From NCBI RefSeq assembly GCF_015207065.1, contig NZ_JADEXP010000011.1:1-43011 (forward strand): 43,011 bases of DNA, given 5' to 3'. Position 1 is the first letter of the stretch. Each line of letters starts with the position of its first letter. Made by a program: the position numbers and the translations under genes. Below, piece by piece: positions 8,896 through 40,405 of this stretch. The notes under the pieces are model-generated. The model was not told the DNA's origin, made no database searches, and worked only from the letters and a program-made list of their open reading frames with translations. The DNA is from Leptolyngbya cf. ectocarpi LEGE 11479 (GTDB lineage: Bacteria > Cyanobacteriota > Cyanobacteriia > Phormidesmidales > Phormidesmidaceae).

Positions 8896-9050
8896 AATTA
8901 GCTGATTTTTTGCAAGATCTATCACTCCAGGGTGTCAAGTTATGGGCAGATGGTGATCGTCTTCGCACGGCTGGTTCTCAGACAGTGTTGACCTCTAATG
9001 TGGTTGAACAGCTCAAGCAACACAAAAGCGCTATCTTGCAGCTGCTCCAC
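8892..9050 (+). other. TubC-type N-terminal docking domain
   Basis: MKLADFLQDLSLQGVKLWADGDRLRTAGSQTVLTSNVVEQLKQHKSAILQLL matches the G(V/I)xLWxxGDxLR...L(T)xxxxxxLxxxKxxILxLL pattern of beta-hairpin docking domains at the N termini of NRPS subunits. Confidence 0.8.
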
Positions 9051-24031: not shown

Positions 24032-25084
24032 ATGAAAAATATGCCTGACAGCATTACATCACGGCTCGCACCAGACAAGATTACTATTCAACATCGCCGT
24101 TGCGAACCCAGAATTTACAATAATATTACCGAGTTGATTGGCAATACTCCTATCGTTCGGTTAGGTCAAATGTTTTGTGGATACAACATATTAGCAAAAT
24201 TAGAGGGATATAATCCAATTAGCTCTATCAAAGACCGGGTTGCTTTTTATATGCTTAAACGTGCTACAGAACGAGGTTTTATTAGTTCTGACACCGTTAT
24301 TATCGAAAGTACATCAGGTAACTTTGGGCTTGGCATGGCAGCAGCCTGTCAGTTCTATGGGTTAAGGTTTATTGCTGTTGTTGATCCTAAAATTTCTAGA
24401 ATAAATTTGAGATTGTTGGAGCTACGGGGGGCTGAAATTGATATGGTGCGTGAGCCTGATGAAACAGGTAACTATTTATCACGACGCATTCAGCGTATAC
24501 AAGAACTTCGCAAAGAAATACCTGATAGCTTTTGGCCCTGTCAGTATCGTTCACCGGATAACCCTAACGCTCATTATTATGATACTGGTCAGGAAATCAT
24601 CAGCCAGCTGAATGGCCATCCTTTAGATTATTTTTTAGCTTCAGTGAGTACGACAGGCACTATATCAGGGATTAGTCGCCGTCTCAAGGAAGTTTATCCA
24701 CAGCTCCAGGTGATTGGTATTGACGAAGAGGGATCTGCATTATTTGGCGGTCAATCAGGTCCCAGATTTTTAAATGGTATGGGCGCGGGCTATCCGATTC
24801 CAGAGTTGGCAGAAGAAACTCACCGGCAACAAAGCGTCGATCAGATTATTCGCGTGAAGGCCTCTGAAGGTATTGAAGCCTGTAACCAGCTGTTGAAGTG
24901 TGAAGGAGTTATGGCAGGTGGGTCTGGCGGAGCCGTGATTGCTTCTTTGAAAAAACTGTTGCCTAGAATTCCATTAAAAAGTAATGTCCTAGTTATTTTG
25001 CCAGATCGAGGCGAACGATATTTAGATACCTTTTATAACAAACGCTGGGTTGAGGACAATATAGATAACACGAAACAGAAATAA
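24032..25084 (+). CDS. sbnA: PLP-dependent SbnA-like N-(2-amino-2-carboxyethyl)-L-glutamate synthase (cysteine-synthase fold); first step of L-2,3-diaminopropionate synthesis
   Basis: IGNTPIVRL, PLP-Lys in NPISSIKDR, ESTSGNFGLGMA, AVVDPKIS, SVSTTGTISGISRRLKE, ILPDRGERYLD. Long colinear matches to S. aureus SbnA as I recall it (VVDPKIS, DYF.A.VSTTG, ILPDRG.RYLD). GGAG lies 10 nt upstream of the ATG. Confidence 0.88.
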   Translation: MKNMPDSITSRLAPDKITIQHRRCEPRIYNNITELIGNTPIVRLGQMFCGYNILAKLEGYNPISSIKDRVAFYMLKRATERGFISSDTVIIESTSGNFGLGMAAACQFYGLRFIAVVDPKISRINLRLLELRGAEIDMVREPDETGNYLSRRIQRIQELRKEIPDSFWPCQYRSPDNPNAHYYDTGQEIISQLNGHPLDYFLASVSTTGTISGISRRLKEVYPQLQVIGIDEEGSALFGGQSGPRFLNGMGAGYPIPELAEETHRQQSVDQIIRVKASEGIEACNQLLKCEGVMAGGSGGAVIASLKKLLPRIPLKSNVLVILPDRGERYLDTFYNKRWVEDNIDNTKQK

Positions 25085-25159
25085 TGATAAAGGGAGTTTA
25101 TTAGCTTAGTTATATAGCCTTACGTTGTTATCTCAAGTCTAACTATATTAGGTTTTTCT

Positions 25160-26167
25160 ATGGAACGGATTCTCTACCTTAGCCAATCTGATATTAAGCA
25201 ATTAGGCGGTGCATTTTCTCCTCTTTATGTTGAGGCCGTTAGTCAGGCCTTAATTTTACATGCCCAGCAAGATGTTGTTCAACCTTTAAAGCCATATTTG
25301 CGCTGGCGCGGGGACGCTGGACACATTGCTGATCGGATCATTGCTATGCCAGCTTATATCGGTGGCCGTGATCCGGTGGCAGGACTGAAGTGGATCGGTA
25401 GTAAACACGATAATCCAACTAGTCGAGGACTGGAGCGGGCCAGTGCCCTGATCACGCTGAACGACCCTGAATCCCATTATCCCATTGCTGTGATGGAAGG
25501 TAGTCTGGTGAGTGGTATGCGGACAGCGGCGGTGAGTGCGATCGCAACCCGCCATCTAGCCAAGAGCGATTTTAGCCACGTTGCCTGTGTTGGCTGTGGA
25601 GTCATTGGCCGGATGCAGTTATCCACATTGCTAGAACAGTTTCCGTCAATTACAACTATCCACTTATTTGACTTAAATAGCTTAGCGGCTAAACGCTTAG
25701 CAGAGCGTCTCCAACAGCAGTTCCCAAAAACCGAGTTCAAAATCGCAGCGAATGCCGAAGCGGCTGTAGGTAAAGGTGAGGTGGTCATTTTCTGCACCGT
25801 CACTGATAAACCCTACGTTCCCTATAGCTGGTTGCAACCCGGTACGTTTGTCAGTAATGTTTCCATCATGGACTTGCACAAGGAAGTCTTTCTTAAGGCA
25901 GATAAGGTAGTTGTAGACGATTGGGAACAGTCTAACCGCCAAAAGAAGATTATCAATCAGTTAGTACTTGAAGGAAGCTTCTCTCGCGAGCAGCTCCATG
26001 CAGAATTAGGCGAAATTTTGACCCAGCGACGGCCAGGACGAGAATCCAGTGACGAAATTATTGTCCTGAATCCTATGGGCATAGCCATTGAAGATATCGC
26101 CTGCGCCCAAGCCATCTACCAAAAGGCGATCGCAGCTGGTATTGGCACTTGGCTGCCCCTATACTAG
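25160..26167 (+). CDS. sbnB: SbnB-like NAD-dependent ornithine-cyclodeaminase-family dehydrogenase; second step of L-2,3-diaminopropionate synthesis
   Basis: VQPLKPYLR, GHIADRIIAMPAYIGG, GLKWIGSKHDNP, YPIAVMEGSLVSGMRTAAVS, GCGVIG, KADKVVVDDWEQ, INQLVLEG, NPMGIAIEDI. Near-colinear with S. aureus SbnB as I recall it. Confidence 0.9.
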   Translation: MERILYLSQSDIKQLGGAFSPLYVEAVSQALILHAQQDVVQPLKPYLRWRGDAGHIADRIIAMPAYIGGRDPVAGLKWIGSKHDNPTSRGLERASALITLNDPESHYPIAVMEGSLVSGMRTAAVSAIATRHLAKSDFSHVACVGCGVIGRMQLSTLLEQFPSITTIHLFDLNSLAAKRLAERLQQQFPKTEFKIAANAEAAVGKGEVVIFCTVTDKPYVPYSWLQPGTFVSNVSIMDLHKEVFLKADKVVVDDWEQSNRQKKIINQLVLEGSFSREQLHAELGEILTQRRPGRESSDEIIVLNPMGIAIEDIACAQAIYQKAIAAGIGTWLPLY

Positions 26168-26251: not shown

Positions 26252-26835
26252 ATGAAATTTAGAACTGTTCCTGTTGGACGACCGGTTATCAACACCCAGA
26301 TCTACATCCTTGATACCTATCTCAATCTTGTTCCTGTGGGTATCGAAGGCGAACTATATGTGGCGGGTGTAGGTGTGGGTCGAGGTTATCTCAATCGTTC
26401 AGGGCTAACAGATGAACGATTTATCCCCAATCCATTTTCGACTATAAATGATTTAAACCATAGTCGTCTTTACAAGACGGGCGATCGAGCCCGCTATCTG
26501 CCTAACGGCACCATTGAATTTCTCGGGCGTATCGATCACCAGGTCAAGGTGCGAGGATTTCGTATTGAACTGGGCGAAATCGAAGCCGCTTTATTAAGTC
26601 ATTCCCATGTGCAGCAAGCTGTTGTTATTGATCGCGAAGACAATCTTGGTGACAAACGACTGGTTGCCTATATGGTGTGTGAAGCTCCCTTGCCTGCTTG
26701 CTCCACAAATTGGTCCGAATTTCTGAAAGCGCAGCTGCCAAGTCATATGATTCCCAGTGCTTTTGTCGAACTAGAGGCTTTGCCTCTAACCCCTAACGGC
26801 AAACTTGATCGACGGGCACTGCCAATGCCAGACAC
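26252..26835 (+). other. Adenylation domain A4, C-terminal fragment (core A6-A10)
   Basis: GELYVAGVGVGRGYLNR (A6), YKTGDRARYLPNG (A7), GRIDHQVKVRGFRIELGEIE (A8), LPSHMIPSAF (A9), NGKLDRRAL (A10, supplies K517). Confidence 0.9.
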
Positions 26836-29800
26836 TGACTTGAGAGAGGCTGCTAATTTTGTTGCTCCTCGCACACCAACAGAAGAAATTACCGCCGATA
26901 TTTTTGCAGCTGTATTGGGACTAGAGACTATCGGTATTCACAGCAATTTCTTTGAATTTGGCGGTCATTCTCTCTTAGCAACGCAAGCAATATCAAAGTT
27001 GCGCGGGGCATTTCAGGTGGAACTACCCTTGAGAGATTTGTTTGAAGCACCGACAGTGGCTGAGTTGGATCAGCGTATTCATCAAGCCCTGACCTGTGAG
27101 CAATCGCAACATAAGCTTGTTCCCATTACAGCTATTTCCCGAGAGAAGAGCTTTCCATTTCCACTTAGCTGGTCTCAAGAAAGACTGTGGTTTCTAAATC
27201 AGTTAGAAGGAGCCAGCAGGGCTTACAACATTCCCATAGTGCTGAAAGTTGAGGGCTCTCTTAATCTAGATGCGTTGGCATGGGCAATGCAGAGCGTAGC
27301 TGAACGTCACGAGATTCTGCGCACTACCTTTCACAATCCAGATGGGCAGCCGATACAGATCGTTTCTCCAACTGCTGCATGCTCAATTCCATTGGAAGAC
27401 TTCACAACAGTTCCAATGGAACAGCAACAGGATAGGGTGCACCAACGCATTCATCAAGCAGCAACAACTCCCTTTAATCTGACCGAGGGGCCTCTGTTGC
27501 GTATAAGCCTGTTGCATCTATTCGAAAAATCCTACGTTTTACTATTAGTTTTTCACCACAGCATCTTTGATGCCTGGTCAGGTGAGGTGTTTGTTCGAGA
27601 ATTAACGACATTTTATCAAGTCTATCAGTCACAGCCAGCGAAGGTTTCTCCCTTTCCCCCCCTGACTCATCAGTATGGTGACTATGCCTACTGGCAACGC
27701 CAGCATCTGAACGTTGTCTTAGAGCCTCAACTCAAGTACTGGCAACAGCATCTGTCGGGCACTTTGCCAGCTTTAAATTTCCCCACAGACTATCCTCAGT
27801 CAGCCCAACCCGAATATCAAGGAGCCCGATGTTCTCGACAGCTATCAGTCTCATTAAGCACGGCACTGAAAACCTTATGTCGAGAAGAAGACGTCACGCT
27901 ATTTATGGCCCTACTAGCCGCACTAAACCTGTTGCTAGCTCGCCATACCGATCAGACAGACATCATCATAGGAGCGCCAATTGCTGGACGCCAACATCCA
28001 GGCACTGAAAACTTGATTGGTTTCTTTGTCAATCTATTACCCCTACGTATTGATTTATCAGAGATCATTACATTTCGAGAGTTACTGGCTCATGTGCGTG
28101 ACGTAACGTTGGCAGCTTACAGCAATCAGGATGTCCCCTTTGAAAAGCTGGTGGAGGTTTTACAACCAGAACGTGCTCTAAATCGTCATCCTGTTTTTGA
28201 TGTCATGCTAAATTTTCTCCAGACTTCCATGGCCCCTCCCAAGGTGAGTGGTTTGGAGCTAACTCCTTTAGAAATGCCGGATATGGCTTCTAAATTTTGG
28301 CTGACGTTACATGTAAGAGAACAAGAAAATTGTCTTCAGTTAGAACTAGCATATCGCCAATCACTGTTTTCAGCAGAGCGGATGGAAATTTTTCTAGCTC
28401 AGTTTGAAACACTGTTAGAGCAGATTGTATCGATGCCTAATCAGGCCGTACATCGGTATTCACTTCTGGTTGCTAACCCTCCGTGGAAACTGCCAGATCC
28501 GAGTGTTCCCTTGGTCGAATCCCCGTTTGAGCCCGTTTCAGCTTTAGTCATGGCTCAAGTGCGAAAGCACCCTGACAAGACTGCCATTACTCAGGCTGGA
28601 CAGTGCTGGACGTACCAAGATCTAATGGCTGAGGCGACTCGCGTTGCCGATCGACTGATCGACACTGGCGCACAGTCAGGCGATGTGGTGGCTGTATATG
28701 GAGAGCGAAACTTTGAATTCATTTCCAGTATCCTTGGCATATTCCTGAGTGGAACTGTACTGCTTACTCTAGATTCCAATTTACCAGAACAACGGCTGCG
28801 ACTGATGGTAGAGCAGGCTAAGGTTCGCTATTTGGTGATACTAGATAATGATCTGCCCAGACAATGGGTTCCCGATCCGGTTCACCTGTTAATGGAGAAG
28901 CCCACAGTAAAATCTCAGCAGACCGCTGTCAAGTCTGCGGCTATGGTTTCTGTGCAGATGTCTTCTTTACCTCAGGTTAAGGGCGATGATCCAGCCTATA
29001 TATTCTTCACCTCGGGTAGTACGGGTATTCCCAAAGGAGTGCTAGGTCTACATAAGGGTATTTCTCACTTCGTCAATTGGCAGCGAGATACCTTTGAGGT
29101 TGGCAGTGAGGATCGGGTTGCTCAGCTGATCCGTTTATCTTTTGATGCACTACTGCGAGATATTTTCTTACCGTTGACAAGCGGTGCGACTTTATGTCTG
29201 CCGACTGAGGATGAGTTGAGTCGCGATCGCATCTTACATTGGCTAGAACAAGAGAATATTTCTATTCTTCACACAGTACCTACAGTCGCCCAGTTCTGGA
29301 TAGCCAATGCTCCGAATATCATCAAGTTACCCGCTCTGCGACTCGCCTTTTTCTCCGGCGAGCCCCTAACCGCAAATTTCATTAGCCAATGGCGGCAAAC
29401 GTTTACCCCAGCCCATAATCTTATTAATCTTTATGGTGCTACAGAGACCACCATGGTTAAAACCTACTATCTAGTGCCTCAGCATCTACGTCCAGGCAGC
29501 CAGCCAGCAGGTTGGCCTCTGCCCCAAACCCAAACTTGGGTATTACGTGATAACGATCAACCCTGTGGCATTGGAGAAGTTGGCCAAATTGTCGTACGCA
29601 CACCGTTTCGTACCTTGGGATATATCAATGCAGATTCTGGTCAACCACCTTGCTTTAGACCAAATCCTTTCCGCTACGATCCTGATGACTTAGTCTACGA
29701 CACAGGCGATCGAGGACGATTTTTACCAGATGGCAGCCTGGAGGTATTAGGTCGTTTAGATAGTCAACTCAAAATCCGAGGTGTGCGCATTCAACCTGGA

Positions 29801-30445
29801 GAAATTGAGGCAATTCTGAATCAAGATTCAGACATTGATCAAAGTGTAGTCGTTGCCCGTCCTGATGCTAAAGGAGAGAATGTCCTGATAGCTTATCTGG
29901 TTCCTCGCCATCAGACTGACATCGATCGGCACCAGCTGCACAACTCTCTATTTCAACGCTTGCCTGTCTATTTAATTCCTACTACCTATGTAATTTTGGA
30001 CACACTTCCTCTAACACCCAGTGGAAAGGTTGATCGTAGCGCTCTCCCGATTCCGGACCTCAGTATCAGTACTCTCTCTACTCAGATTCCCCCACGTACG
30101 CCAACAGAGATTAGTTTGGTTGAAATTGTTGCTAACATTCTCAGGCTTGACACTGTAGGTATTTACGATAACTTCTTTGCTCTAGGGGGACATTCTTTGC
30201 AAGCGAGTCAGGTGATTGCCTATATCCAGCAAACCTTTGGAATAAAGCTACCCCTGCGCTCACTTTTTGAAGAGCCGACAGTTGCAGCGCTTGCCAAAAT
30301 GATAGACATCTATCAAGAAAAAGGAAACACAAATGCGGCATCAACTACGCCAATTCCTAAACGGTCACGACGACGAGTAAAACGCTCAGCCGAAGGAACG
30401 CTGATTATACCGGCTCAGCTCAAGCAAGAGCTACAGGATAATTGA
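26252..30445 (+). CDS. NRPS-2 (1397 aa): A(C-terminal fragment, core A6-A10)-PCP / C-A(DARH-type)-PCP
   Basis: Starts MKFRTVPVGRPVINTQIYILD, the segment that in intact A domains follows about 20 residues after YGPTE. The in-frame region upstream is closed by TAA at 26195-26197 and has no earlier ATG. No N-terminal docking or C domain. Confidence 0.92.
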   Translation: MKFRTVPVGRPVINTQIYILDTYLNLVPVGIEGELYVAGVGVGRGYLNRSGLTDERFIPNPFSTINDLNHSRLYKTGDRARYLPNGTIEFLGRIDHQVKVRGFRIELGEIEAALLSHSHVQQAVVIDREDNLGDKRLVAYMVCEAPLPACSTNWSEFLKAQLPSHMIPSAFVELEALPLTPNGKLDRRALPMPDTDLREAANFVAPRTPTEEITADIFAAVLGLETIGIHSNFFEFGGHSLLATQAISKLRGAFQVELPLRDLFEAPTVAELDQRIHQALTCEQSQHKLVPITAISREKSFPFPLSWSQERLWFLNQLEGASRAYNIPIVLKVEGSLNLDALAWAMQSVAERHEILRTTFHNPDGQPIQIVSPTAACSIPLEDFTTVPMEQQQDRVHQRIHQAATTPFNLTEGPLLRISLLHLFEKSYVLLLVFHHSIFDAWSGEVFVRELTTFYQVYQSQPAKVSPFPPLTHQYGDYAYWQRQHLNVVLEPQLKYWQQHLSGTLPALNFPTDYPQSAQPEYQGARCSRQLSVSLSTALKTLCREEDVTLFMALLAALNLLLARHTDQTDIIIGAPIAGRQHPGTENLIGFFVNLLPLRIDLSEIITFRELLAHVRDVTLAAYSNQDVPFEKLVEVLQPERALNRHPVFDVMLNFLQTSMAPPKVSGLELTPLEMPDMASKFWLTLHVREQENCLQLELAYRQSLFSAERMEIFLAQFETLLEQIVSMPNQAVHRYSLLVANPPWKLPDPSVPLVESPFEPVSALVMAQVRKHPDKTAITQAGQCWTYQDLMAEATRVADRLIDTGAQSGDVVAVYGERNFEFISSILGIFLSGTVLLTLDSNLPEQRLRLMVEQAKVRYLVILDNDLPRQWVPDPVHLLMEKPTVKSQQTAVKSAAMVSVQMSSLPQVKGDDPAYIFFTSGSTGIPKGVLGLHKGISHFVNWQRDTFEVGSEDRVAQLIRLSFDALLRDIFLPLTSGATLCLPTEDELSRDRILHWLEQENISILHTVPTVAQFWIANAPNIIKLPALRLAFFSGEPLTANFISQWRQTFTPAHNLINLYGATETTMVKTYYLVPQHLRPGSQPAGWPLPQTQTWVLRDNDQPCGIGEVGQIVVRTPFRTLGYINADSGQPPCFRPNPFRYDPDDLVYDTGDRGRFLPDGSLEVLGRLDSQLKIRGVRIQPGEIEAILNQDSDIDQSVVVARPDAKGENVLIAYLVPRHQTDIDRHQLHNSLFQRLPVYLIPTTYVILDTLPLTPSGKVDRSALPIPDLSISTLSTQIPPRTPTEISLVEIVANILRLDTVGIYDNFFALGGHSLQASQVIAYIQQTFGIKLPLRSLFEEPTVAALAKMIDIYQEKGNTNAASTTPIPKRSRRRVKRSAEGTLIIPAQLKQELQDN
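26867..27080 (+). other. PCP4
   Basis: FFEFGGHSLLATQAISKLR; Ser codon 26969-26971. Confidence 0.9.
27155..28465 (+). other. Condensation domain C5 (LCL-like)
   Basis: FPLSWSQERLWFLNQLEG; VFHHSIFDAWS (27554-27580; Ala where HHxxxDG has Gly); HQYGDYAYWQ. Confidence 0.9.
28545..30053 (+). other. Adenylation domain A5, divergent; DARH-type pocket (candidate side-chain-carboxyl activation of Asp, McyB2-like)
   Basis: PAYIFFTSGSTGIPKG; SFDALLRD; ILHTVPT; AFFSGEP; NLYGATETTMV; YDTGD; KIRGVRIQPGEIE; PSGKVDR. The code read by eye is DARHFSLMVK. Confidence 0.6.
30092..30306 (+). other. PCP5
   Basis: FFALGGHSLQASQVIAYIQ; Ser codon 30194-30196. Confidence 0.9.
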
Positions 30446-30499: not shown

Positions 30500-31231
30500 T
30501 TGAGTTATTTCCACTCCCTATCAAGACTGGATTTCCTAGGCATTCTGGGGGGTATGGGTCCGTTAGCCTCTGCTGAATTTCTCAAGACTATTTATGAATA
30601 CAGTCTGACGGGGGAGTCTGAGCAGGAATCACCCAGGGTTGTAGTATATTCTGATCCCACATTACCTGATAGAACTCAAATACTTTTGAGTGGCGAAAGT
30701 GAACCATTACTGAGTAAGCTTATCGAAGCATTACATCAGCTGAGTGAACTCAAAGCAAGAAGAATAATCATCTGTTGCGTTACGTCTCACTATCTACTTG
30801 CCAAACTTCCTGCTGACTTGCAAGAACGCATTATTTGTCTGGTAGACATTATTCTCAGTAATATTATTGAGCAAAAAAAAAAGCATCTTTTACTCTGTAC
30901 AACAGGTACCCGTCGGCTCAAGATATTTTCACAGCATCCCCTATGGGGCCAGGCTAAGGAGTACATTATACTGCCAGATGATTCGGATCAACAGACTGTA
31001 CATAACATGATATACCAAATTAAAACTAACGGTATATCAATACCGGTCGCGTATCAGCATGCAGAGTGTTTAGCCATGAAATACAATGCTGATTCGGTCA
31101 TTGCTGGCTGTACAGAACTACATTTATTAAGTAAGTTTTCTATAAATGGGGGTGAGTTTCAAGCAAAACAAGATATTCAGATTACCTTTTTCGATCCTTT
31201 AGTGCATATTGCTCAAAGCCTTGCGTCGTGA
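30500..31231 (+). CDS. Asp/Glu/hydantoin-racemase-family protein, aspartate-racemase-like (McyF-like)
   Basis: LGILGGMGPLASAEFLKTIYE at the N terminus. Two catalytic-Cys contexts: IICCVTSHYLL and IAGCTELHLL (GCTE). About 240 aa, typical of PLP-independent two-Cys racemases. Confidence 0.8.
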   Translation: MSYFHSLSRLDFLGILGGMGPLASAEFLKTIYEYSLTGESEQESPRVVVYSDPTLPDRTQILLSGESEPLLSKLIEALHQLSELKARRIIICCVTSHYLLAKLPADLQERIICLVDIILSNIIEQKKKHLLLCTTGTRRLKIFSQHPLWGQAKEYIILPDDSDQQTVHNMIYQIKTNGISIPVAYQHAECLAMKYNADSVIAGCTELHLLSKFSINGGEFQAKQDIQITFFDPLVHIAQSLAS

Positions 31232-31241
31232 CCTCTAACAA

Positions 31242-32273
31242 ATGAAAAAATCTAAGCCATCTATAGCCTCCATCAATGTTGAAAAAGTTAAGTTGGGATA
31301 TCTACAAGTAGATCAACAGCCCCCTTTAGTCATAGAGCCGACTAGTGACGATCTGGATTTAGTATCCTGGGCCAATGATAACCAGGGGCTTATAGAAAGC
31401 CAGCTTGACACCTATGGTGCTCTTCTATTTCGAGGCTTTAAGCTACCTTCTCCAACCACTATGTTAGAACAATTCGCACTGACAAATTGTTCAGATCTAT
31501 TTGACGACAATGGCGAGCATCCCCGTGAAGCCTTAGGTAGTAAAGTTTATACTCCTGTTTTTTATCCCAACGACAAGAAGATTTTCTGGCACAACGAGAA
31601 CTCGTTTAATCGGCGTTCGCCCATGAGAATTTGGTTTTGCTGTCTACAACCATCAGAGCAAGGAGGAGAGACTCCTATTGTTGATAGCCGTGAAGTCTAT
31701 AACCTAATCGATCCTGAAATTAGATCAGAATTTGAGCAAAAACAAATAAAGTATATCCGCAATTACAATCCGCAACTAGGACTTTCTTGGCAAAAGATTT
31801 TTCAAACAACTGATAAAAAAGAAGTTGAAGAAAAATGCAAAGATAATCTAATGTCGTTTGAATGGAAAGAAGGGGATCGTCTGCAGACAACCTGCATTCG
31901 TCCATCGGTGGTGAAACATCCAAGGACAGGTGAAAAGTCGTGGTTTAATCAGGCACAACATTGGCATTTATACTTTCTAGATCCAATTACCCGTGAGGTT
32001 TTTTCGTCGTCTTTTTCTGAAGATGAGCTACCACGTAACTGTTGCTATGGTGATGGATCGCCTATTCCAGATGCTGTTATGGAAGCTGTCGAAAAGGTAT
32101 ATCAGAAGCTGGAGATCAGTTTCTCCTGGCAGAAAGAAGATATCTTGATGCTAGATAATATCCTTATGGCCCACGCTCGTAATCCGTTTGTTGGAGAAAG
32201 AAAGCTCTTAGTGACGATGGGGAAAACGTTTCAATATGATCATTGTACTACTGCTCAAGACAATGCGCCTTAA
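31242..32273 (+). CDS. TauD/TfdA / clavaminate-synthase-like Fe(II)/2-oxoglutarate oxygenase; candidate Asp/Asn beta-hydroxylase
   Basis: YGALLFRGF; HxE metal motif in FWHNENSF; distal His/Arg in LMAHARNPF. About 340 aa and positioned inside an NRPS operon, as for SyrP/AsnO-type amino-acid beta-hydroxylases. Confidence 0.75.
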   Translation: MKKSKPSIASINVEKVKLGYLQVDQQPPLVIEPTSDDLDLVSWANDNQGLIESQLDTYGALLFRGFKLPSPTTMLEQFALTNCSDLFDDNGEHPREALGSKVYTPVFYPNDKKIFWHNENSFNRRSPMRIWFCCLQPSEQGGETPIVDSREVYNLIDPEIRSEFEQKQIKYIRNYNPQLGLSWQKIFQTTDKKEVEEKCKDNLMSFEWKEGDRLQTTCIRPSVVKHPRTGEKSWFNQAQHWHLYFLDPITREVFSSSFSEDELPRNCCYGDGSPIPDAVMEAVEKVYQKLEISFSWQKEDILMLDNILMAHARNPFVGERKLLVTMGKTFQYDHCTTAQDNAP

Positions 32274-32365: not shown

Positions 32366-35300
32366 ATGACACTTTCAGCAGTTTCGGAAGACGTTTACAT
32401 TTATCCGTTATCTTTTGCTCAAGAGCATCTCTGGTTTTTGCAACAGGCAAACCCAGAGAGCGTAGCCTACAATATGACTTACGCGCTCCGCCTGCAAGGC
32501 AATCTGAATGTGTCAGCATTAGAGTGTGCTATTCAAACTATCTACACACGTCATGAAACCCTGCGCACCAGTATTGAAATGGTCGATGGCTTTGCCATGC
32601 AGGTCATTTCTCCAGCTGTTGCTATGTCTCTTCCTTTTATCGATCTGAGCACCCTTTCCTCAACTGATGCTATGGGCGAGGTAAAGCGGTTAGCCATTGA
32701 TCAAGAAACAACCTGCTTTAATCTAGCTCAAGAGGTCCTAATCCGAGTTCAGCTGTTACGATTGGCGGACACTGATCATGTACTGTTGCTAACGCTACAC
32801 CATATTATTGCAGATGGCTGGTCTATTGGTATAATTATTCAAGAGACTTCTACATTGTATTCAGCATATTTCCAGGGCAAGCCACCTGCGCTACCTGAAC
32901 TGCCGATTCAATATGGAGATTTTTCAGATTGGCAGCGTGATTGGTTGTCAGGCCCCGTTCTTCAGAAACTGCTCACCTATTGGACTAGTCAATTAGCTGG
33001 CGTACCTACATTACTAGAATTGCCTAGCGATCGCACGTACCCGGCAATCCGAACGGCTCAAGGTCGTACCGAAAAGTTTGTTGTTGATCCAACTTTAGCT
33101 CTGCAGCTCAAAACATTAGCTCAACGGCAGCAGGTGACTTTGTTTATGTTACTGTTGGCTGCATTTGGCACCCTGTTGTTTCGTTATAGTGAGCAGCAAG
33201 ATATGGTGATTGGTACGTCGATTGCCAATCGTACCCGGCCAGAATTTGAGCCATTAATCGGCTTTTTTGTGAATACGTTAGCTTTAAGACTCCAGTTTCA
33301 AGAGATTTCAACATTTCAAGATCTCTTAGATCAGGTGCGTCAAGTAAGTTTGGGTGCTTATGAACATCAGGATTTACCCTTTGCCCATGTGGTTGAAGCA
33401 CTTGATTTGGAGCGATCGCTGAGCCATAGTCCTCTAGTTCAGGTTATGTTTCTACTGCAGAATGCTTCTAGTGAGCAGTTAGAATTGCCAGGGCTAACGC
33501 TATCTTCCCTTGAGTTTGAAGAAACAAGAGCCAGATTTGATCTTACCCTGTCAGTGCAAGAAACAGCTGCGGGGCTGCAGGGGCAATGGGAATACAGTAC
33601 CGATCTATTTGAAGCAGAGACTATTCGTCGTATGATCGTTCACTTTCATACGCTCCTAGAAGGCATTGTTGATAATCCTCAAGAACTGCTGGATCAGCTA
33701 CCACTGTTGCCAAAACCAGAGTCTCAGAAGTTATTAAAAGAGTGGAACGATACGGCTGTTGATTATCCCAAAGAGCGTTGTATCCACCAGCTTTTTGAAG
33801 CCCAGGTAGAGAAAACTCCAAAGGCAGTTGCTGTTGAATTTAATACTCAGCAGCTGACTTACGAGGTATTGAATCAGCGGGCTAATCAACTGGCACGTTA
33901 TCTGCAAACTGTGGGAGTTGGGCCGGAGATCTTAGTAGGGATTTGTGTTGAAAGATCCCTTGATATGATAGTGGGCTTGTTAGGAATTCTCAAGGCAGGG
34001 GGGGGCTATGTTCCCATGGATCCTAGCTATCCTAAGAAACGTCTGATCTACATGTTGCAAGATTCTGCAGCATCAGTTTTGTTGACTCAACAAAAAATAC
34101 AAGAGAGTTTCTCTCAGTCAGGTGTTCATACAATCTGCCTCGATTTAGACTGGCCTAAAATTGCTGACCATGGGAGTGGCAATGTTGAGAGTACTATTAA
34201 CTCCAACAACTTGGCCTATGTTATTTATACCTCCGGCTCCACAGGAAAACCGAAAGGAGTTGAGGTTATCCATCAAGGTTTGACTAACTATCTATGCTGG
34301 TGTGTTCAACACTATGATATTGCCAGGGGATCTGGGGCACTAGTTCATACTCCGCTTGGATTCGATGCAACTATTACGGGACTCTTTTCTCCTCTTTTGG
34401 TGGGTCGAACAGTATTTTTACTCCCAGAGGATCAGGGGATCAGCGCCTTGGCAGGCGCTTTACAGCAGGGAAATAATTTTAGTTTAGTTAAGTTGACACC
34501 CGCTCATCTAAAGCTTCTTAGTTCTCTTATTCCAGCGGAAAAACTAGCTCAACAGGCACACGTTTTTGTGATTGGCGGAGAAGCCTTGATGAAAGACATG
34601 ATTTCTCCCTGGTTGACCCATGCTCCAAATACAAGACTGATCAATGAATATGGGCCAACTGAAACTGTGGTTGGATGCTGTATTTACGAGGCTAATGCCC
34701 ATAAAGCTTTAGCAGATCTGATTCCTATCGGTCGTCCTATTGCCAATACTCAACTCTATATTTTAGATTCTCGGCTACACCCTTTACCTATTGGGGCTGT
34801 GGGAGAATTATACATAGGTGGAGACGGGGTAGCCCGAGGGTATCGGGGGTTGCCAGAACTAAGTGCTGAGAAGTTTATGGCTAACCCCTTTGGGTTAGGT
34901 CGTCTTTACAGGACGGGAGATCTAGCTCGCTATTTGCCTGATGGAAATGTTGAATTCCTCGGACGTATTGACAATAGCGTGAAGCTTCGGGGTTTTCGGA
35001 TTGAATTAGGAGAGATTGAAGCGGTTCTGTCTGCCCATCCTCATATCCAACAAGTCAGCGTAATTGTTCGAGAAGATCACCCAGAGGACAAGCGGCTAGT
35101 CGCCTATGTGGTGAACCAACATATACAGCTCTCCTCAATAGAGCTACGTGACTTTCTCAAGGCTCAGCTGCCTGATTACATGTTGCCTAATACTTTTATG
35201 CAACTGGACGCTTTACCCCTGACTCCTAATGGTAAAGTCGATCGAAATGCCTTGCCCTCACCGGAAAGCCTGTCGGGACCATCCCGTGTATCGACTCCGC

Positions 35301-36340
35301 CTCGCAATCAGATGGAATTAAAACTGGCCCGCATTTGGTCAGACGTGCTCAAGGTAGATCAGATCGGGATGGAGGATGATTTCTTTGAATTGGGAGGTCA
35401 TTCTCTGATAGCGCTGGCTCTGATGGCACGCATTAAGGAAATGTTAGGCTACACACTACCGTTCAATACTCTGTTTCAAGAAGCAACCATTGAACAGCAA
35501 GCTATGCTTTTGGAGCAAAACGTTGATCCGCAGGCATGGACTCCTTTGACACCTCTACAACCCCAGGGTAGTCACCCTCCCTTATTCTTGATTCATCCTG
35601 GCGGTGGAAGTGTGCTGTGTTACCAGAGACTGATGCCATATTTAGGTCAGCAAAGAGCACTTTATGGGCTAGAAACAAGGGGGTTCATTCCAGGGCAGTC
35701 CCCACGCACGAGTATTGAAGCGATGGCCACAGACTACATTCAATCTATCCAAGTGTTACAGCCTACCGGGCCTTATCACTTGGCTGGCTGGTGTTTGGGA
35801 GGAATGATTGCCTGGGAGGTTGCACAGCAACTGATGATCCAGGGGCAACACGTTTCTCGTCTCATCTTTATTGATGTTAATTCGTCAATGGCGGGTGATC
35901 AAATTCCTGAGCCGACCGATTTACTGGCGGGTATGGTTGGTCAAGCTTTAGACTTATCTGCAGTTGATCTAGAGGTGCTGACTAAACATTTGCAGTCTAT
36001 GAATTGGGAGGATCAGCTTGCCTATGTTATCTCAGAGGCAGAACATCGAAATTTTCCGCTCAGTCCAGGGTTTGGGATGGCGCAATTGGACAGTATTGTG
36101 CAAATTAGGCGGGGGCACATTCAGGCTGCACAGAGCTATGTGCCTAAGCCTTATCCGGGTGAGGTAGTCCTACTACAAGCTGAGGGGGGAGTTGCCGCAC
36201 GGGCTGATGATCCTACGCTTGGCTGGCAGGCTTTAGCTCAGAAGACAACGCTTCACTGGGTTCCTGGAAATCATTTATCTATGATGCGAGAACCCCATGT
36301 CAAAGTGCTGGGGCAATACTTCAAGAAATATTTAGATTAA
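32366..36340 (+). CDS. NRPS-3 (1324 aa): C-A(Asn)-PCP-TE, terminal module
   Basis: See the domain features. It begins directly with the C domain (MTLSAVSEDVYIYPLSFAQEHLWF). Confidence 0.95.
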   Translation: MTLSAVSEDVYIYPLSFAQEHLWFLQQANPESVAYNMTYALRLQGNLNVSALECAIQTIYTRHETLRTSIEMVDGFAMQVISPAVAMSLPFIDLSTLSSTDAMGEVKRLAIDQETTCFNLAQEVLIRVQLLRLADTDHVLLLTLHHIIADGWSIGIIIQETSTLYSAYFQGKPPALPELPIQYGDFSDWQRDWLSGPVLQKLLTYWTSQLAGVPTLLELPSDRTYPAIRTAQGRTEKFVVDPTLALQLKTLAQRQQVTLFMLLLAAFGTLLFRYSEQQDMVIGTSIANRTRPEFEPLIGFFVNTLALRLQFQEISTFQDLLDQVRQVSLGAYEHQDLPFAHVVEALDLERSLSHSPLVQVMFLLQNASSEQLELPGLTLSSLEFEETRARFDLTLSVQETAAGLQGQWEYSTDLFEAETIRRMIVHFHTLLEGIVDNPQELLDQLPLLPKPESQKLLKEWNDTAVDYPKERCIHQLFEAQVEKTPKAVAVEFNTQQLTYEVLNQRANQLARYLQTVGVGPEILVGICVERSLDMIVGLLGILKAGGGYVPMDPSYPKKRLIYMLQDSAASVLLTQQKIQESFSQSGVHTICLDLDWPKIADHGSGNVESTINSNNLAYVIYTSGSTGKPKGVEVIHQGLTNYLCWCVQHYDIARGSGALVHTPLGFDATITGLFSPLLVGRTVFLLPEDQGISALAGALQQGNNFSLVKLTPAHLKLLSSLIPAEKLAQQAHVFVIGGEALMKDMISPWLTHAPNTRLINEYGPTETVVGCCIYEANAHKALADLIPIGRPIANTQLYILDSRLHPLPIGAVGELYIGGDGVARGYRGLPELSAEKFMANPFGLGRLYRTGDLARYLPDGNVEFLGRIDNSVKLRGFRIELGEIEAVLSAHPHIQQVSVIVREDHPEDKRLVAYVVNQHIQLSSIELRDFLKAQLPDYMLPNTFMQLDALPLTPNGKVDRNALPSPESLSGPSRVSTPPRNQMELKLARIWSDVLKVDQIGMEDDFFELGGHSLIALALMARIKEMLGYTLPFNTLFQEATIEQQAMLLEQNVDPQAWTPLTPLQPQGSHPPLFLIHPGGGSVLCYQRLMPYLGQQRALYGLETRGFIPGQSPRTSIEAMATDYIQSIQVLQPTGPYHLAGWCLGGMIAWEVAQQLMIQGQHVSRLIFIDVNSSMAGDQIPEPTDLLAGMVGQALDLSAVDLEVLTKHLQSMNWEDQLAYVISEAEHRNFPLSPGFGMAQLDSIVQIRRGHIQAAQSYVPKPYPGEVVLLQAEGGVAARADDPTLGWQALAQKTTLHWVPGNHLSMMREPHVKVLGQYFKKYLD
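32393..33720 (+). other. Condensation domain C6 (LCL-like)
   Basis: YPLSFAQEHLWFLQQ; LHHIIADGWS (32806-32832); IQYGDFSDWQ. Confidence 0.9.
33790..35263 (+). other. Adenylation domain A6, predicted Asn (close paralog of A1)
   Basis: LAYVIYTSGSTGKPKG; GFDATITGLF; VKLTPAHL; FVIGGEA; NEYGPTETVVGCC; NGKVDR. The code read by eye is DATKVGEVGK (Asn), identical to A1. Confidence 0.85.
35299..35516 (+). other. PCP6
   Basis: FFELGGHSLIALALMARIK; Ser codon 35402-35404. Confidence 0.9.
35539..36337 (+). other. Type I thioesterase with Cys nucleophile
   Basis: PLFLIHPGGGSVLCY. The nucleophile elbow is LAGWCLGG, with TGT (Cys) at 35792-35794 where GxSxG is expected. Also LIFIDV (Asp) and VPGNHLSMM (His). 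Confidence 0.9.
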
Positions 36341-36483: not shown

Positions 36484-37854
36484 ATGACAGAGAAACTATT
36501 AACAGCCACAGAAAAGCCAATTGCCAAGGGCATGGGTGTATTTATATCCATTTGGCTGGGGTCATTTGTCTCGTTAATGGGTAAGCGCTTAACTAGCTTT
36601 GCTTTGAATATTTGGATTCTCCAAACGACGGACTCGATCAATTTCTACACACTGGGAGTTTTGATTACAACATTACCGGCTCTTTTTTTAGCTCCTTTTT
36701 TCGGTAGCTTAGTCGATCGCTGGCCACGGCGGTGGGTAATGATCATTTCTGAGATTGGGTCTGGCCTATGTATTTTGGCCCTTGCCCTTTTGTTTATTAT
36801 GGACTCCTTAAAGCTCTGGCATTTATTCGTTTTGACAGGGCTCAATGCTGCTTTTATAGAAGTGGATACGCTGGCGTTTCAGTCTGCTGTTAGTTTGATT
36901 GTGCCGTCAGAAGAGTTACCTCGTGCAAGTGGGTTTACTCTCTTGGGTTCGGCTATTGCTCGACTGCTAGCTCCTGTTTTAGCTGGAGCTTTAATAGTCA
37001 TTATTCAGATACAGGGTATTTTACTAATTGATTGCGCTAGTTTTTTTATGGGTCTAATCCCCTTGCTTTTGTTCCGATTACCAGAAGTAGATATAGCGTT
37101 GCTCGAGGGTGATAAAGAACATATTTCTCTAGGAGCGCAGCTCAATCAGGGGTGGACGTATTTAACTAGTCAATCAGGACTGTTTAGCTTAATGACGCTA
37201 CGAGCAGTTTATACATTTGTCTCTACAGCTGGAATTCTGTTATTTGTTCCTATGCTGCTAAAGTTGACCACGCCTGTGGCTTTGGGGAGTTCTATGTTTG
37301 TTGTGGGTCTGGGGGGCGTAGTTGGAGGAGTTTTGATGGGGACTTGGGCTAATCGTCAAGAACAACTCATGCCATTAGTATTTGGCTGTATGTTTTTTAC
37401 CAGTTTGGCGGCGATCGCAAGTGGATTACGCCCATCTTTGGGGCTCATTATAGCTGCAGCATTTTTCTTCCTCTTGAATTTTCCTCTAATTACAGGGTCT
37501 ATTCAGGTTATTTTTCAGAGGCAGGTATCCCCTGAACTGCAGGGACGTATTTTTGCCCTGAGTAATGCGTTTGTTGCGATCGCAACTATTGCTGCAATTG
37601 TCTTTAGCTCCGTGGTGGATCAGCTTCTAGAACCAATGATGATTTTTGAAGGACCCTGGGCCAACGGAATTGGCCAAATTATTGGTACTGGACCAGGTCG
37701 AGGCATTGGCTTAATGTACATTATGCTAGGCGTAATGACTATGCTAATCACCATAATTGCTTATCAACATGTACCCTTGGTAAATATTGAGCAAGAAACT
37801 GAAATCTACAGTCAACCTTGCCTCGCACTCTCCGATTTAGACGTAACAAAGTAG
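36484..37854 (+). CDS. MFS transporter, EntS-like / MFS_3 family (probable product exporter)
   Basis: 456 aa, hydrophobic throughout (about 12 helices). The loop 2-3 motif GSLVDRWPRRWVM matches the GxxxDRxxRR signature of this exporter family. Confidence 0.8.
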   Translation: MTEKLLTATEKPIAKGMGVFISIWLGSFVSLMGKRLTSFALNIWILQTTDSINFYTLGVLITTLPALFLAPFFGSLVDRWPRRWVMIISEIGSGLCILALALLFIMDSLKLWHLFVLTGLNAAFIEVDTLAFQSAVSLIVPSEELPRASGFTLLGSAIARLLAPVLAGALIVIIQIQGILLIDCASFFMGLIPLLLFRLPEVDIALLEGDKEHISLGAQLNQGWTYLTSQSGLFSLMTLRAVYTFVSTAGILLFVPMLLKLTTPVALGSSMFVVGLGGVVGGVLMGTWANRQEQLMPLVFGCMFFTSLAAIASGLRPSLGLIIAAAFFFLLNFPLITGSIQVIFQRQVSPELQGRIFALSNAFVAIATIAAIVFSSVVDQLLEPMMIFEGPWANGIGQIIGTGPGRGIGLMYIMLGVMTMLITIIAYQHVPLVNIEQETEIYSQPCLALSDLDVTK

Positions 37855-37945: not shown

Positions 37946-40405
37946 ATGAATCTTACTATTAGCCCTGGACACAGGGCAAGAATAGGTGCTGTTGTTGGCG
38001 TTTTTGTACCTGTACTCATGCTCATGGGATACTGCGGTACTCTACTTTTGAGGACACGGTGGGGAATCTTTTTTGATGCCGTGATCAGCGTCCTTATTAG
38101 CGCTATTGCAGTTGCTCTTCTCAGTGGCACTATTGCACTTATAATTGTTTTCCTTACGAAGCTACCTCGTCTTTTCAGCAGTTATTTGGCTAGTGCATGG
38201 CTGGCCCTGCTATTGCTTCTCAATGATTCACCTGTGGCTAATCTTCCTCTAGCCACAGCGATAGTATTAGCCCTGGCCTTGTTGGGCGGCGCTATCGCGA
38301 TGGTTACATCTCCAAATTTTATAACAATTCGCCTTTCTCAAAAGATATTACTAGGTGTTGTCTTATCTACTACAGCTGCGACCTCATTAGGCTGCTTTAT
38401 CTGGCTTATAGCTCCGGGTACCGCCCAAGAACTGTTGCCAATGGACATGGGGTATCACCCAGTACTGCAGGCACTTGAGGCTCCCAATCCAGCCAAATTA
38501 GGTTCCTACAAGGTGAAGACACTCACCTATGGTAGTGGTGAGGACTGGCGTACAGAGTTTGGTCATGGTGCGCAACTCAGAACGCAACCAGTTGATGGCA
38601 GCGCTTTTTTGAATTCACCTCAAGGGTGGATTGGAAATCTAACCGGTTTACATCTGTTTGATGGATGGTTCCAATTGGTTCGGCAACGCTATTGGGGATT
38701 CGATCGCAGCAATCTTCCCCTCAACGGTCGAGTTTGGTATCCAGAAGGCGAAGGGAAATTTCCTTTAGTCTTGGTTGTCCACGGAAACCATCTTATGCGT
38801 GAGTACTCAGATCCTGGTTATGCTTACCTAGGAGAACTGTTAGCTAGTCGTGGATACATTTTTATTTCAATAGATGAGAATTTTCTAAATAGTGATTGGT
38901 CAAACGACTATAAAAAAGAGAATGAAGCCCGCGGATGGCTAATGCTCGAACACCTCAACGTATGGCGATCATGGAATACAGAAATTGGCAATCCTTTTTA
39001 TCAAAAGGTAGACTTGGATAGAATCTCCTTAATGGGGCATTCACGGGGGGGTGAAGCTATTAATTTTGCAGTAGCGTTTAATCATCTTCAATACTATCCC
39101 AACGATGCAAACGTAAAGTTTGACTACGGTTTTAATATCAGATCTATCGTAGCTATTGCCCCGGTTGACTTCCAATCCTTCTACCAATCTGCCCCACTAG
39201 AAGATATCAACTATCTTGTGCTACAAGGAACCCATGATGCCGATGTTTTTCGCTTTTTAGGAGACCGACAGTACAAACGGGTCAAGTTTACTAAAAAAAA
39301 CTATAGGTTCAAGTCCTCGATCTATATTTATCGGGCAAATCATGGGCAATTTAACACTGTCTGGGGTAATCGAGATCGGATACTGCCCTATGGTTACTCC
39401 TTGAATACCAAACCTCTGCTCACGGGAGAAGAACAACGACAAATCGCAAAAGTCTACATCAGTGCATTTCTTGATACTACCCTTAAAGATGAAGAGGTTT
39501 ATCTGCCAATCTTTCACGACTATAGGCTAGCCGCCGACTGGTTGCCAAAAACACATTACATTAGTCGCTTTGAAGACTCACGTACACACATTGTTAGCGA
39601 TTTTGATGAAGATATCGATCTTACAACTACAAGTATAAACGGCGGTAGCCAAGTGGGTGAAAATCTTAGAGTTTGGACGGAAAAAGATCTTGGGTTCCGC
39701 ATAAGTAATACCAAACGCCAAAACCAGGCTGTTTATCTTGGCTGGGAATATAATGAGGCAGATAGAGATTGGATTAGAACAGATAGTTCAAGTCCTAGCA
39801 TTGGCGCCATGAGAGATATTCAGCCAGCCAGCTATACCATTACTCTTCCTAGCAATTTCAGGACTCAATGGCCGATAAACTCAAGTTCATCGCTGACGTT
39901 CTCCCTTGCTGATGTGAATAAAAAATCTGCTCTGTTCTACGGTTCAGATGCTGCAGATGTGGAGTCAGCTACAATACTTGACTCAAAAAAAGATAAGCAG
40001 ACTTATAAAAGTATAGAGACAAAAGGTATAGAGACAGACGAATCTGAGAATCGACCGGAAGAGATAGAAAAAAGAACCAAAATACCTATCGATTTCACCA
40101 TTGAAGTGGAAGATCTAAACGAGCAAACCGCAGCTCTTCCTCTCAGTAAAATTGCAAGTTTACTACCCCCACTCAAAGCGAAGTTTACACGATATAGACC
40201 CTGGGAAAAGAGATATGGCTTCTCCAGTGAGTCTGTCCTGCAGACTATTGAAATCCCAATGTTTGATTTCCTAGAGGTTAATGGACAATTTAACCCTAGC
40301 CAGATTAAGGCGATCCGCTTTCGATTTGACCGCGTCTCTGTAGGGATGATTATTCTAGATGAAGTGGGGATCCGTTTGACTCAGTCAACAATGCTCCCTA
40401 CCTAG
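37946..40405 (+). CDS. Membrane-anchored alpha/beta hydrolase (chlorophyllase / PAF-acetylhydrolase-like) with an uncharacterised C-terminal region
   Basis: The N-terminal 170 aa holds about 5 hydrophobic helices. Then PLVLVVHGNH, the nucleophile elbow LMGHSRGGEA (Ser codon 39041-39043), LQGTHDADV and YRANHGQFN. The last 330 aa or so have no motif I recognise and include a Lys/Glu-rich linker (KKDKQTYKSIETKGIETDESENRPEEIEKRTK). Confidence 0.65.
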   Translation: MNLTISPGHRARIGAVVGVFVPVLMLMGYCGTLLLRTRWGIFFDAVISVLISAIAVALLSGTIALIIVFLTKLPRLFSSYLASAWLALLLLLNDSPVANLPLATAIVLALALLGGAIAMVTSPNFITIRLSQKILLGVVLSTTAATSLGCFIWLIAPGTAQELLPMDMGYHPVLQALEAPNPAKLGSYKVKTLTYGSGEDWRTEFGHGAQLRTQPVDGSAFLNSPQGWIGNLTGLHLFDGWFQLVRQRYWGFDRSNLPLNGRVWYPEGEGKFPLVLVVHGNHLMREYSDPGYAYLGELLASRGYIFISIDENFLNSDWSNDYKKENEARGWLMLEHLNVWRSWNTEIGNPFYQKVDLDRISLMGHSRGGEAINFAVAFNHLQYYPNDANVKFDYGFNIRSIVAIAPVDFQSFYQSAPLEDINYLVLQGTHDADVFRFLGDRQYKRVKFTKKNYRFKSSIYIYRANHGQFNTVWGNRDRILPYGYSLNTKPLLTGEEQRQIAKVYISAFLDTTLKDEEVYLPIFHDYRLAADWLPKTHYISRFEDSRTHIVSDFDEDIDLTTTSINGGSQVGENLRVWTEKDLGFRISNTKRQNQAVYLGWEYNEADRDWIRTDSSSPSIGAMRDIQPASYTITLPSNFRTQWPINSSSSLTFSLADVNKKSALFYGSDAADVESATILDSKKDKQTYKSIETKGIETDESENRPEEIEKRTKIPIDFTIEVEDLNEQTAALPLSKIASLLPPLKAKFTRYRPWEKRYGFSSESVLQTIEIPMFDFLEVNGQFNPSQIKAIRFRFDRVSVGMIILDEVGIRLTQSTMLPT

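Follow-up and report, generated by a model that had tools for sequence, protein, structure and literature searches.

A thioesterase with a cysteine nucleophile at the end of a nonribosomal peptide synthetase of Leptolyngbya cf. ectocarpi LEGE 11479, and its candidate release reactions

Thioesterases (TEs) in which a cysteine takes the place of the nucleophilic serine have been studied as cyclisation catalysts in the papers on ObiF, SulM, BulbE and MacB (2019-2026), and each of these enzymes depends on the thiol for ring closure. Here we describe the Cys TE that ends a nonribosomal peptide synthetase (NRPS) of the cyanobacterium Leptolyngbya cf. ectocarpi LEGE 11479. It is encoded in a stretch of 43,011 nucleotides (assembly GCF_015207065.1, contig NZ_JADEXP010000011.1, positions 1 to 43,011 of the forward strand), which we refer to as the window.

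In ObiF1 and SulM the catalytic Asp has moved to the loop after β7, the arrangement known from RifR and RedJ, and both enzymes group with type II TEs such as these two (PMC6668435, PMC11298585). Apart from these two, AB3403 (ABBFA_003403 of Acinetobacter baumannii, PDB 4zxh/4zxi) is the one Cys TE with a characterised structure, and it retains the canonical Asp (PMC6668435, PMC11298585). The published criteria for SulM-type TEs, which form β-lactams, are a Gln-Cys-Asn motif combined with an Asp at position II (after β7), a pocket made positively charged by two of three Arg positions, a last A domain specific for 2,3-diaminopropionate (Dap) and a sulfotransferase gene (PMC11298585).

Two further enzymes have been studied biochemically. 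MacB-TE, which is 90.6% identical to the PmxB-TE of polymyxin biosynthesis and has the triad Cys89/Asp116/His218, closes a macrolactam via the side-chain amine of diaminobutyrate 4 (Dab4); its C89S variant hydrolyses only, and the D116S variant retains activity (PMC13288461). BulbE-TE (Cys961/Asp988/His1097, with the Asp after β6) acylates the indole nitrogen of a Trp, which gives an indolylamide macrolactam, and its C961S variant hydrolyses (PMC11536411). The Cys-to-Ser variant of ObiF likewise mainly or only hydrolyses, and for SulM-TE a Ser is reported to be no substitute for the Cys; in neither of these two enzymes can Ser stand in for Cys.

The thioesterase domain and its relatives of known structure

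The TE sits directly after the last peptidyl carrier protein (PCP) domain of the terminal NRPS (residues 986-1046). The Pfam family PF00975 spans residues 1072-1319 (nucleotides 35579-36322) with 94.7 bits, against a cut-off of 26.4. Nucleotides 35780-35800 read ttggctggctggtgtttggga, which in the frame of the open reading frame (ORF) 32366-36340 translates to HLAGWCLGGMIAWEV. Sequence and translation (codon 1143) thus bear out the claim of a preliminary description of this DNA that Cys replaces the Ser nucleophile in LAGWCLGG, with TGT at 35792-35794. The domain start given there, 35539, lies one base out of frame and yields stops on translation; the frame starts at 35537 or 35540, which leaves the claim itself unaffected. 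The features of the domain are:

35537-36337, forward strand: TE domain, 267 residues as modelled (PF00975, AlphaFold2 model)
35792-35794, forward strand: nucleophile Cys1143, codon TGT, elbow GWCLGG; aligns to the Cys of AB3403 (GWCFGG)
35873-35875, forward strand: triad Asp1170 (LIFIDV) at 'position I', 27 residues after the Cys and after strand β6
36116-36118, forward strand: His1251 (TE residue 194, RRGHIQAAQ) in the last lid helix
36272-36274, forward strand: triad His1303 (VPGNHLS) in the PGNH loop

Asp1170 and His1303 align to the triad positions of AB3403 (phmmer against PDB sequences, end-to-end TE alignment), and in a 113-sequence alignment of homologues the triad Asp is conserved in 109 and the triad His in 112. 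An AlphaFold2 model of the TE, built on 113 sequences (predicted local distance difference test, pLDDT, 96.4; predicted template-modelling score, pTM, 0.93), has the α/β-hydrolase topology, and four helices at residues 126-200 form its lid. In TE numbering, Cys86 lies between strand 80-85 and helix 87-101, and the G-x-Nuc-x-G elbow expected between strand and helix is present as GWCLGG; Asp113 ends strand 106-112, and His246 is found in the loop past strand 234-242. A Cys-Asp-His triad with the Asp (LIFIDV) and His (VPGNHLSMM) in their normal places, as the preliminary description had it, is confirmed at the level of sequence and modelled topology. From alignment and model, the domain is very probably a working type I NRPS TE of the long-lid lineage of AB3403, Pks13, FAS and the skyllamycin TE, in which Cys1143 stands for Ser and the triad is otherwise canonical.

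Among the PDB entries AB3403 (4zxh) is the best match both by sequence (phmmer E 2.7e-32, profile E 7.6e-44) and by fold (Foldseek, template-modelling score 0.85). It has the same layout of condensation (C), adenylation (A), PCP and TE domains in a protein of nearly the same length (1320 versus 1324 residues), and likewise a Cys elbow (GWCFGG), a canonical Asp after β6 and a long lid. It differs in sequence (Foldseek identity ~28%), in having a lid Asn instead of His1251, and in its proteobacterial host. Closest homology, Cys and canonical Asp are thus all shared with AB3403, and the tree described below groups the window TE with cyanobacterial Cys TEs. The product and release chemistry of AB3403 are uncharacterised, and the protein therefore gives no functional precedent.

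The preliminary description had cited ObiF and SulM as precedents; the comparison does not support treating them as the relevant relatives. Like the window TE they have a Cys nucleophile, and the SulM pathway also uses Dap, but they are type II-like, with a relocated Asp, and form four-membered rings, the β-lactone of obafluorin and the β-lactam of sulfazecin, from the C-terminal residue. ObiF1 and SulM are absent from the best 60 of 73 PDB profile matches (search at E≤10) and from the best 50 Foldseek matches. The RifR-like triad of ObiF combines the relocated Asp with a Gly at the canonical site, which here is occupied by Asp1170. As to the SulM-type features, the Asp is at position I, the elbow reads Trp-Cys-Leu where SulM has Gln-Cys-Asn, the last A domain is of Asn type with the Dap code in module 4 of 6, and no sulfotransferase domain was found in the 11 long ORFs of the window searched against Pfam, although the cluster could continue past the window. 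These observations agree with the earlier expectation that no sulfazecin-style β-lactam is formed. By lineage, ObiF and SulM are the wrong comparison; AB3403 should be used for homology, and PmxB/MacB-TE and BulbE-TE for mechanism.

PmxB/MacB-TE resembles the window TE in its Cys-Asp-His triad with the Asp at Cys +27 and in its substrate, an N-acylated lipopeptide with a diamino acid, but it has a shorter lid (Cys-to-His +129 versus +160). BulbE-TE, from the bulbiferamide pathway of a marine gammaproteobacterium, also has a Cys nucleophile and a post-β6 Asp at +27; it differs in its shorter lid (+136 versus +160), its indole nitrogen nucleophile and its 15-atom ring.

Distribution of the cysteine and the lid histidine

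An exhaustive HMMER search returned 38,316 relatives at E≤0.001. In its best 150 cluster representatives, 24 of the 168 full-length domain matches have Cys at the elbow, as do 38 of 203 when every match across the elbow is counted, a local share of 14-19%. The preliminary description had called natural Cys TEs uncommon. This is correct globally, with ~2% Cys among known TEs (PMC13288461), and incorrect for the neighbourhood of the window TE, where Cys dominates its own clade: in a neighbour-joining tree of 247 TE domains, the nested clades around it contain 5/5, 11/12 and 17/21 Cys sequences. A profile search of 90% clusters gave 12 Cys among 113, the nearest matches again being the Cys ones. 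A scan of species-representative genomes yielded no match above 48% identity, and its count of 19 Cys among 83 is biased upward by a search pattern (one of two) that contained GWC; we rely on the unbiased HMMER search.

The Cys-TE clade is mostly cyanobacterial and includes sequences from Symploca, Nostoc, Rhizonema, Moorena producens 3L and a Nostocaceae metagenome-assembled genome (MAG). The nearest relatives are Symploca MAGs (68% identity), and Cys is kept in relatives down to ~37% (clade range 37-68%). In the close relatives, the codons of the flanking Gly (GGC/GGT/GGG) and Leu (TTG/CTG) drift synonymously while Cys stays TGT or TGC. Judged by these sequences, the Cys is a conserved trait of a mostly cyanobacterial clade and not an error, and the clade counts together with the synonymous drift around a fixed Cys codon indicate that it is under selection. 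A TGT misread for TCT, a possibility that the preliminary description had allowed for, would take a single base. Yet Cys occurs at the same site in independent assemblies of relatives (among them loci L001, L082, L083, L002-L005 and L007), so that a sequencing artefact is effectively refuted; a dead domain is at odds with the intact triad and fold (pLDDT as above) and the uninterrupted ORF. We regard the chance of either as negligible.

Cys and Ser have interconverted often: about 18 state changes are needed over the 247-domain tree, several of them single tips, and the Ser codon at the nucleophile site is TCN in 61 of 64 loci, one nucleotide from TGY. This speaks for a reading in which Cys is a near-neutral alternative to Ser and the TE releases its chain by hydrolysis, as a linear, carboxylate-rich lipopeptide and possibly a siderophore. 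We consider this reading somewhat unlikely. The retention of Cys over a clade of 37-68% identity argues for selection, and since the Cys-to-Ser variants of ObiF, MacB-TE and BulbE-TE hydrolyse, a pure hydrolase has no evident need for Cys.

A second difference between Cys and Ser TEs is found in the lid. Of 43 Cys TEs, 65% have a His at position 194 of the TE, compared with 10% of 200 Ser TEs, in which Asn is usual; these figures are inflated by shared ancestry, and His is present in some of the neighbouring Ser sequences too. The lid His is invariant in a seven-sequence alignment of Cys TEs. In tree order it accompanies Cys in the 15-sequence Cys run of the window TE, in the adjacent pair P0010/L002 and in three or more further Cys runs. 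The lid Asn is retained by isolated Cys tips and by AB3403, and L066 and L076, which are AB3403-like and have this Asn, belong to a separate Cys run. From these sequences the lid His appears to co-vary with the Cys nucleophile, which we treat as a lead. We take position 194 to be probably equivalent to the groove-lining Asn1640 of Pks13, on the basis of an alignment with ambiguous gaps.

The triad acid is also less conserved in the Cys TEs, where the position holds Asp in 71% of the sequences compared with 99% in the Ser TEs; the replacements are Glu, Asn, Gln and Gly. The lower conservation agrees with the acid being less needed by a thiol nucleophile, and parallels the activity retained by MacB-TE D116S.

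Many of the best-scoring relatives hold at least two TE domains per protein, often with Cys in both (P0011, P0014, P0022, P0028, P0029, P0031, P0130). In some of these double-TE proteins the second triad is degenerate, as in P0014, where PPKRRH replaces the His loop.

The assembly line and its predicted peptide

The TE belongs to a row of genes from 1930 to 37854, all of which run in the same direction:

1930-8895, forward strand: loading and polyketide synthase gene with fatty acyl-AMP ligase (FAAL), acyl carrier protein (ACP), ketosynthase, acyltransferase, ketoreductase (KR) and ACP domains (Pfam)
8892-23861, forward strand: NRPS of 4989 residues
24032-25084, forward strand: SbnA-like gene (NCBIfam TIGR03945)
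25160-26167, forward strand: SbnB-like gene (NCBIfam TIGR03944)
26252-30445, forward strand: NRPS gene after sbnA/sbnB (C-terminal half of the module-4 A domain, then module 5)
30500-31231, forward strand: Asp/Glu-type racemase gene
31242-32273, forward strand: dioxygenase of the TauD family, encoded directly upstream of the terminal module (PF02668, 140 bits)
32366-36340, forward strand: terminal NRPS, C-A-PCP-TE, 1324 residues (ORF8; ORF list, translation, Pfam)
32399-33736, forward strand: C domain of the terminal NRPS
33794-35236, forward strand: A domain of the terminal NRPS, code DATKVGEVCK
35306-35515, forward strand: PCP of the terminal NRPS (PF00550; residues 986-1046)
35402-35404, forward strand: phosphopantetheine-attachment Ser1013 of PCP6 (ELGGHSLIAL), the peptidyl thioester donor to the TE
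36484-37854, forward strand: exporter of the major facilitator superfamily (MFS_1/MFS_3, EntS-like), directly downstream of the TE (Pfam, NCBIfam)

The ORF list contains no antisense ORF of 100 residues or more across the TE region. Further downstream, an ORF of 819 residues (37946-40405) has a weak chlorophyllase/PETase-like α/β-hydrolase match at residues 261-409 (Pfam) and no NCBIfam family match.

The specificity codes of the A domains were read by alignment to a GrsA segment, a procedure that recovered the GrsA code DAWTIAAICK correctly. They are:

Module 1: DATKVGEVCK, Asn type
Module 2: DLYNLSLISK, Cys; with a heterocyclisation domain and an embedded nitroreductase-type oxidase, giving a thiazole
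Module 3: DLTKIGHVVK, Asp; followed by a true epimerisation domain (HHLVVDGVSW, EGHGR)
Module 4: DIWQVTADDK, predicted Dap; acidic code positions, with sbnA/sbnB adjoining
Module 5: DARHFSLMVK, possibly a D-acidic residue from the racemase
Module 6: DATKVGEVCK, Asn type

The code of modules 1 and 6 matches DATKVGEVGK, which is predicted as Asn (PMC3547906 Table 2), at 9 of 10 positions. The domain after module 3 was also considered as a hydroxylase 'interface' domain, an assignment that is ruled out by HHLVVDGVSW and EGHGR, which mark an epimerase. The C domain of module 3 (16890-18224) has HHIIADRWS in place of HHxxxDG, with the core Gly changed to Arg and the His pair and Asp of the motif intact. 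In module 5 (27161-30445) the A domain is divergent, ATETTM replacing PTE; its code and the racemase gene suggest direct loading of a D-acidic amino acid. Possibly this is D-isoAsp, by comparison with McyB module 2 and in view of the adjacent racemase gene.

The diamino acid is the one building block with a free amine that is predicted for this chain, and the sbnA/sbnB-like genes would supply it. As the preliminary description proposed, the supply is of SbnA/B type: both proteins score above the NCBIfam equivalog cut-offs (SbnA, TIGR03945, 351.3 bits versus 349.95; SbnB, TIGR03944, 403.2 bits versus 326.9). By these scores the Dap supply is real, and the Dap module is predicted from the module-4 code, in which positions 330 and 331 are acidic. 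The A domain of this module is interrupted in the loop that joins core motifs A5 and A6, and lies across two genes:

22935-23861, forward strand: N-terminal half of this A domain, the last part of the 4989-residue NRPS (phmmer, A positions 1-291)
26252-26803, forward strand: C-terminal half of this A domain, the first part of the following NRPS (A positions 310-481)

The gene of the first half ends with ...NAYGPAECSDDVTHQLIYHH and a stop, and that of the second half begins with MKFRTVPVGRP. The alignment to intact A domains is continuous over the break, with zero residues missing, and sbnA/sbnB (24032-26167) are nested between the halves. The same break point occurs in two related loci, in L084 (3-4116) also with sbnA/sbnB, and in L086 (5743-8852) with a nested gene for an EctB-type diaminobutyrate transaminase (599.6 bits, cut-off 552.2). 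From these sequences, A domains for diamino acids appear to be split by the very genes that make the substrate of the domain.

At the other end of the chain, ORF1 has a KR, and a dehydratase was not found in it (Pfam), which predicts a 3-hydroxyacyl starter and hence a candidate oxygen nucleophile. The TauD-family dioxygenase is a possible β-hydroxylase of Asn or Asp; against the PDB at E≤1e-5 it matched 1y0z and 9yut only, and AsnO and VioC were not found. We infer a chain of the form 3-hydroxyacyl-Asn-thiazole-D-Asp-Dap-X-Asn. Its candidate intramolecular nucleophiles are the β-amine of Dap4, the 3-hydroxyl of the starter and, as a less evident choice, the terminal Asn, through its side chain or, if TauD acts there, through a β-hydroxyl.

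The last of these would lead to a self-cyclisation of the C-terminal residue, on a scaffold unrelated to that of ObiF and SulM, giving a succinimide through the side-chain amide of Asn6, or a β-lactone if TauD hydroxylates Asn6. The Asn-type terminal A code and the TauD gene directly upstream of the terminal module fit this idea, as does the TauD enzyme of the cyanochelin C pathway, which serves the last residue; Cys TEs also follow Asn-type terminal modules in loci L029 and L069. We nevertheless consider it very improbable. All SulM-type features that can be tested are absent, the Asp is not relocated, and a canonical Asp position is reported to hinder ObiF-type chemistry (PMC6668435). The closest relatives end in Orn, Pro or Phe. 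Over the whole set of Cys-TE relatives the A codes give Orn, Pro, Phe, Asn and Gly as terminal residues, a variety that argues against any one rule of terminal-residue self-cyclisation.

Proposed modes of chain release, and related clusters

We hypothesize that the hexapeptidyl chain is transferred from PCP6 to Cys1143 by transthioesterification, which would give a thioester acyl-enzyme and not an oxoester. The β-amine of Dap4 would then attack this thioester and close a macrolactam of 10 or 11 atoms, leaving an acylated tripeptide as a tail. Compared with an oxoester, a thioester is far more reactive to amines and about equally reactive to water, and in all Cys TEs tested to date the exchange of Cys for Ser turns ring closure into hydrolysis (as cited in PMC11536411). 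This reactivity, the loss of ring closure in Cys-to-Ser variants and the precedent of polymyxin and macolacin are the reasons why we favour intramolecular aminolysis by Dap4, a tentative preference. The preliminary description had proposed Dap macrolactam or 3-hydroxyl macrolactone release; both are plausible, and by analogy PmxB/MacB-TE (Dab amine) and BulbE-TE (indole nitrogen) would favour the amine.

Several points weigh against the Dap4 macrolactam. The predicted ring of 10 or 11 members is small and strained; it would span three residues, while that of PmxB/MacB spans seven (Dab4 to residue 10). Ser TEs also form macrolactams, and a Cys is no proof of cyclisation. MacB-TE and BulbE-TE, which were compared through the residue numbers in the literature, are to be seen as analogues and not as demonstrated close relatives, and the long-lid Cys clade is without any member of known product. 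In the A codes of 34 loci, with clusters truncated at 10 kb, Cys TEs were not cleanly associated with modules for diamino acids, basic residues occurring with Ser TEs as well, and the terminal residues of the Cys-TE relatives are varied, as described above. Two further points, the loading protein of the closest related cluster and the siderophore-like traits of the window, bear at the same time on other modes of release.

In the closest related cluster, L001, whose TE is 66% identical, the lipid-loading protein has an aminotransferase where the window has the KR. By analogy this may point to the β-position of the fatty acid as the site of ring closure in that family, through its heteroatom, which in the window would be the 3-hydroxyl predicted from a KR without dehydratase. 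Attack of this hydroxyl on the Cys thioester would yield a macrolactone with all six residues in the ring. The Ser-to-Cys exchange in the Pik TE improved macrolactonisation (as cited in PMC6668435 and PMC13288461). We consider such a macrolactone unlikely: in most lipodepsipeptides hydroxyl nucleophiles are handled by ordinary Ser TEs, the advantage of a thioester concerns amines and not oxygen nucleophiles (PMC11536411), and there is no relative of known structure.

The carboxylate-rich peptide, the TauD protein and the EntS-like exporter, by analogy, resemble linear siderophores of the cyanochelin type, and with the Asp/Asn codes and the thiazole module these traits favour hydrolytic release of a linear product. 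Cyanochelin C is a linear acyl-peptide with a FAAL starter, a heterocycle and β-OH-Asp (bioRxiv 10.64898/2026.07.24.740629). Like the window, clusters of this type combine a FAAL starter with a module for heterocyclisation, a D-amino acid and a TauD enzyme at the terminal module; their modules are also split between ORFs, and genes for precursor supply lie inside the NRPS row (bioRxiv 10.64898/2026.07.24.740629). The comparison is one of architecture; cyanochelin C is released reductively and contains no Dap, and the window shows no transporter cassette. Nor does the window hold any TonB-dependent receptor or other siderophore uptake gene, which speaks against the hydrolytic reading.

We speculate that in the mainly cyanobacterial long-lid clade Cys was fixed together with the lid change from Asn to His, and that His1251 is catalytic, for instance as the base for the incoming nucleophile, which would enable an unusual release, for example closure of the strained 10- or 11-membered Dap macrolactam or self-cyclisation of a C-terminal (hydroxy)Asn. 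We hold this to be distinctly unlikely.

In the three closest relatives, as in the window, the TE gene is directly followed by a gene for an MFS_3/MFS_1 (EntS-like) exporter (window, 36484-37854; L001, 23730-25064; L082, 948-2258; L083, 1661-3019). The unusual code DARHFSLMVK of module 5 is found again, unchanged, in L001 and L002. Next to the terminal NRPS, the window has a gene for a racemase of the Asp/Glu family, and so do L001 and L084. By their sequences, the shared exporter, code and racemase point to orphan lipopeptide clusters that form one family. Gene context gave no known product for the loci of Moorena producens 3L (L007) and Symploca (L029), and no product assignment was found in the literature on cyanobacterial Dap/thiazole lipopeptides or on the A codes.

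The Cys TE of Leptolyngbya cf. ectocarpi extends a known theme, that of Cys-type TEs, and overturns nothing. For the long-lid lineage there is a crystal structure, that of AB3403, but no known chemistry. The assembly line in the window has a readable module order, largely predictable specificities, and one obvious amine and one obvious hydroxyl nucleophile. It is thus a tractable system for the role of the Cys, and of the co-varying lid His, in the long-lid lineage.

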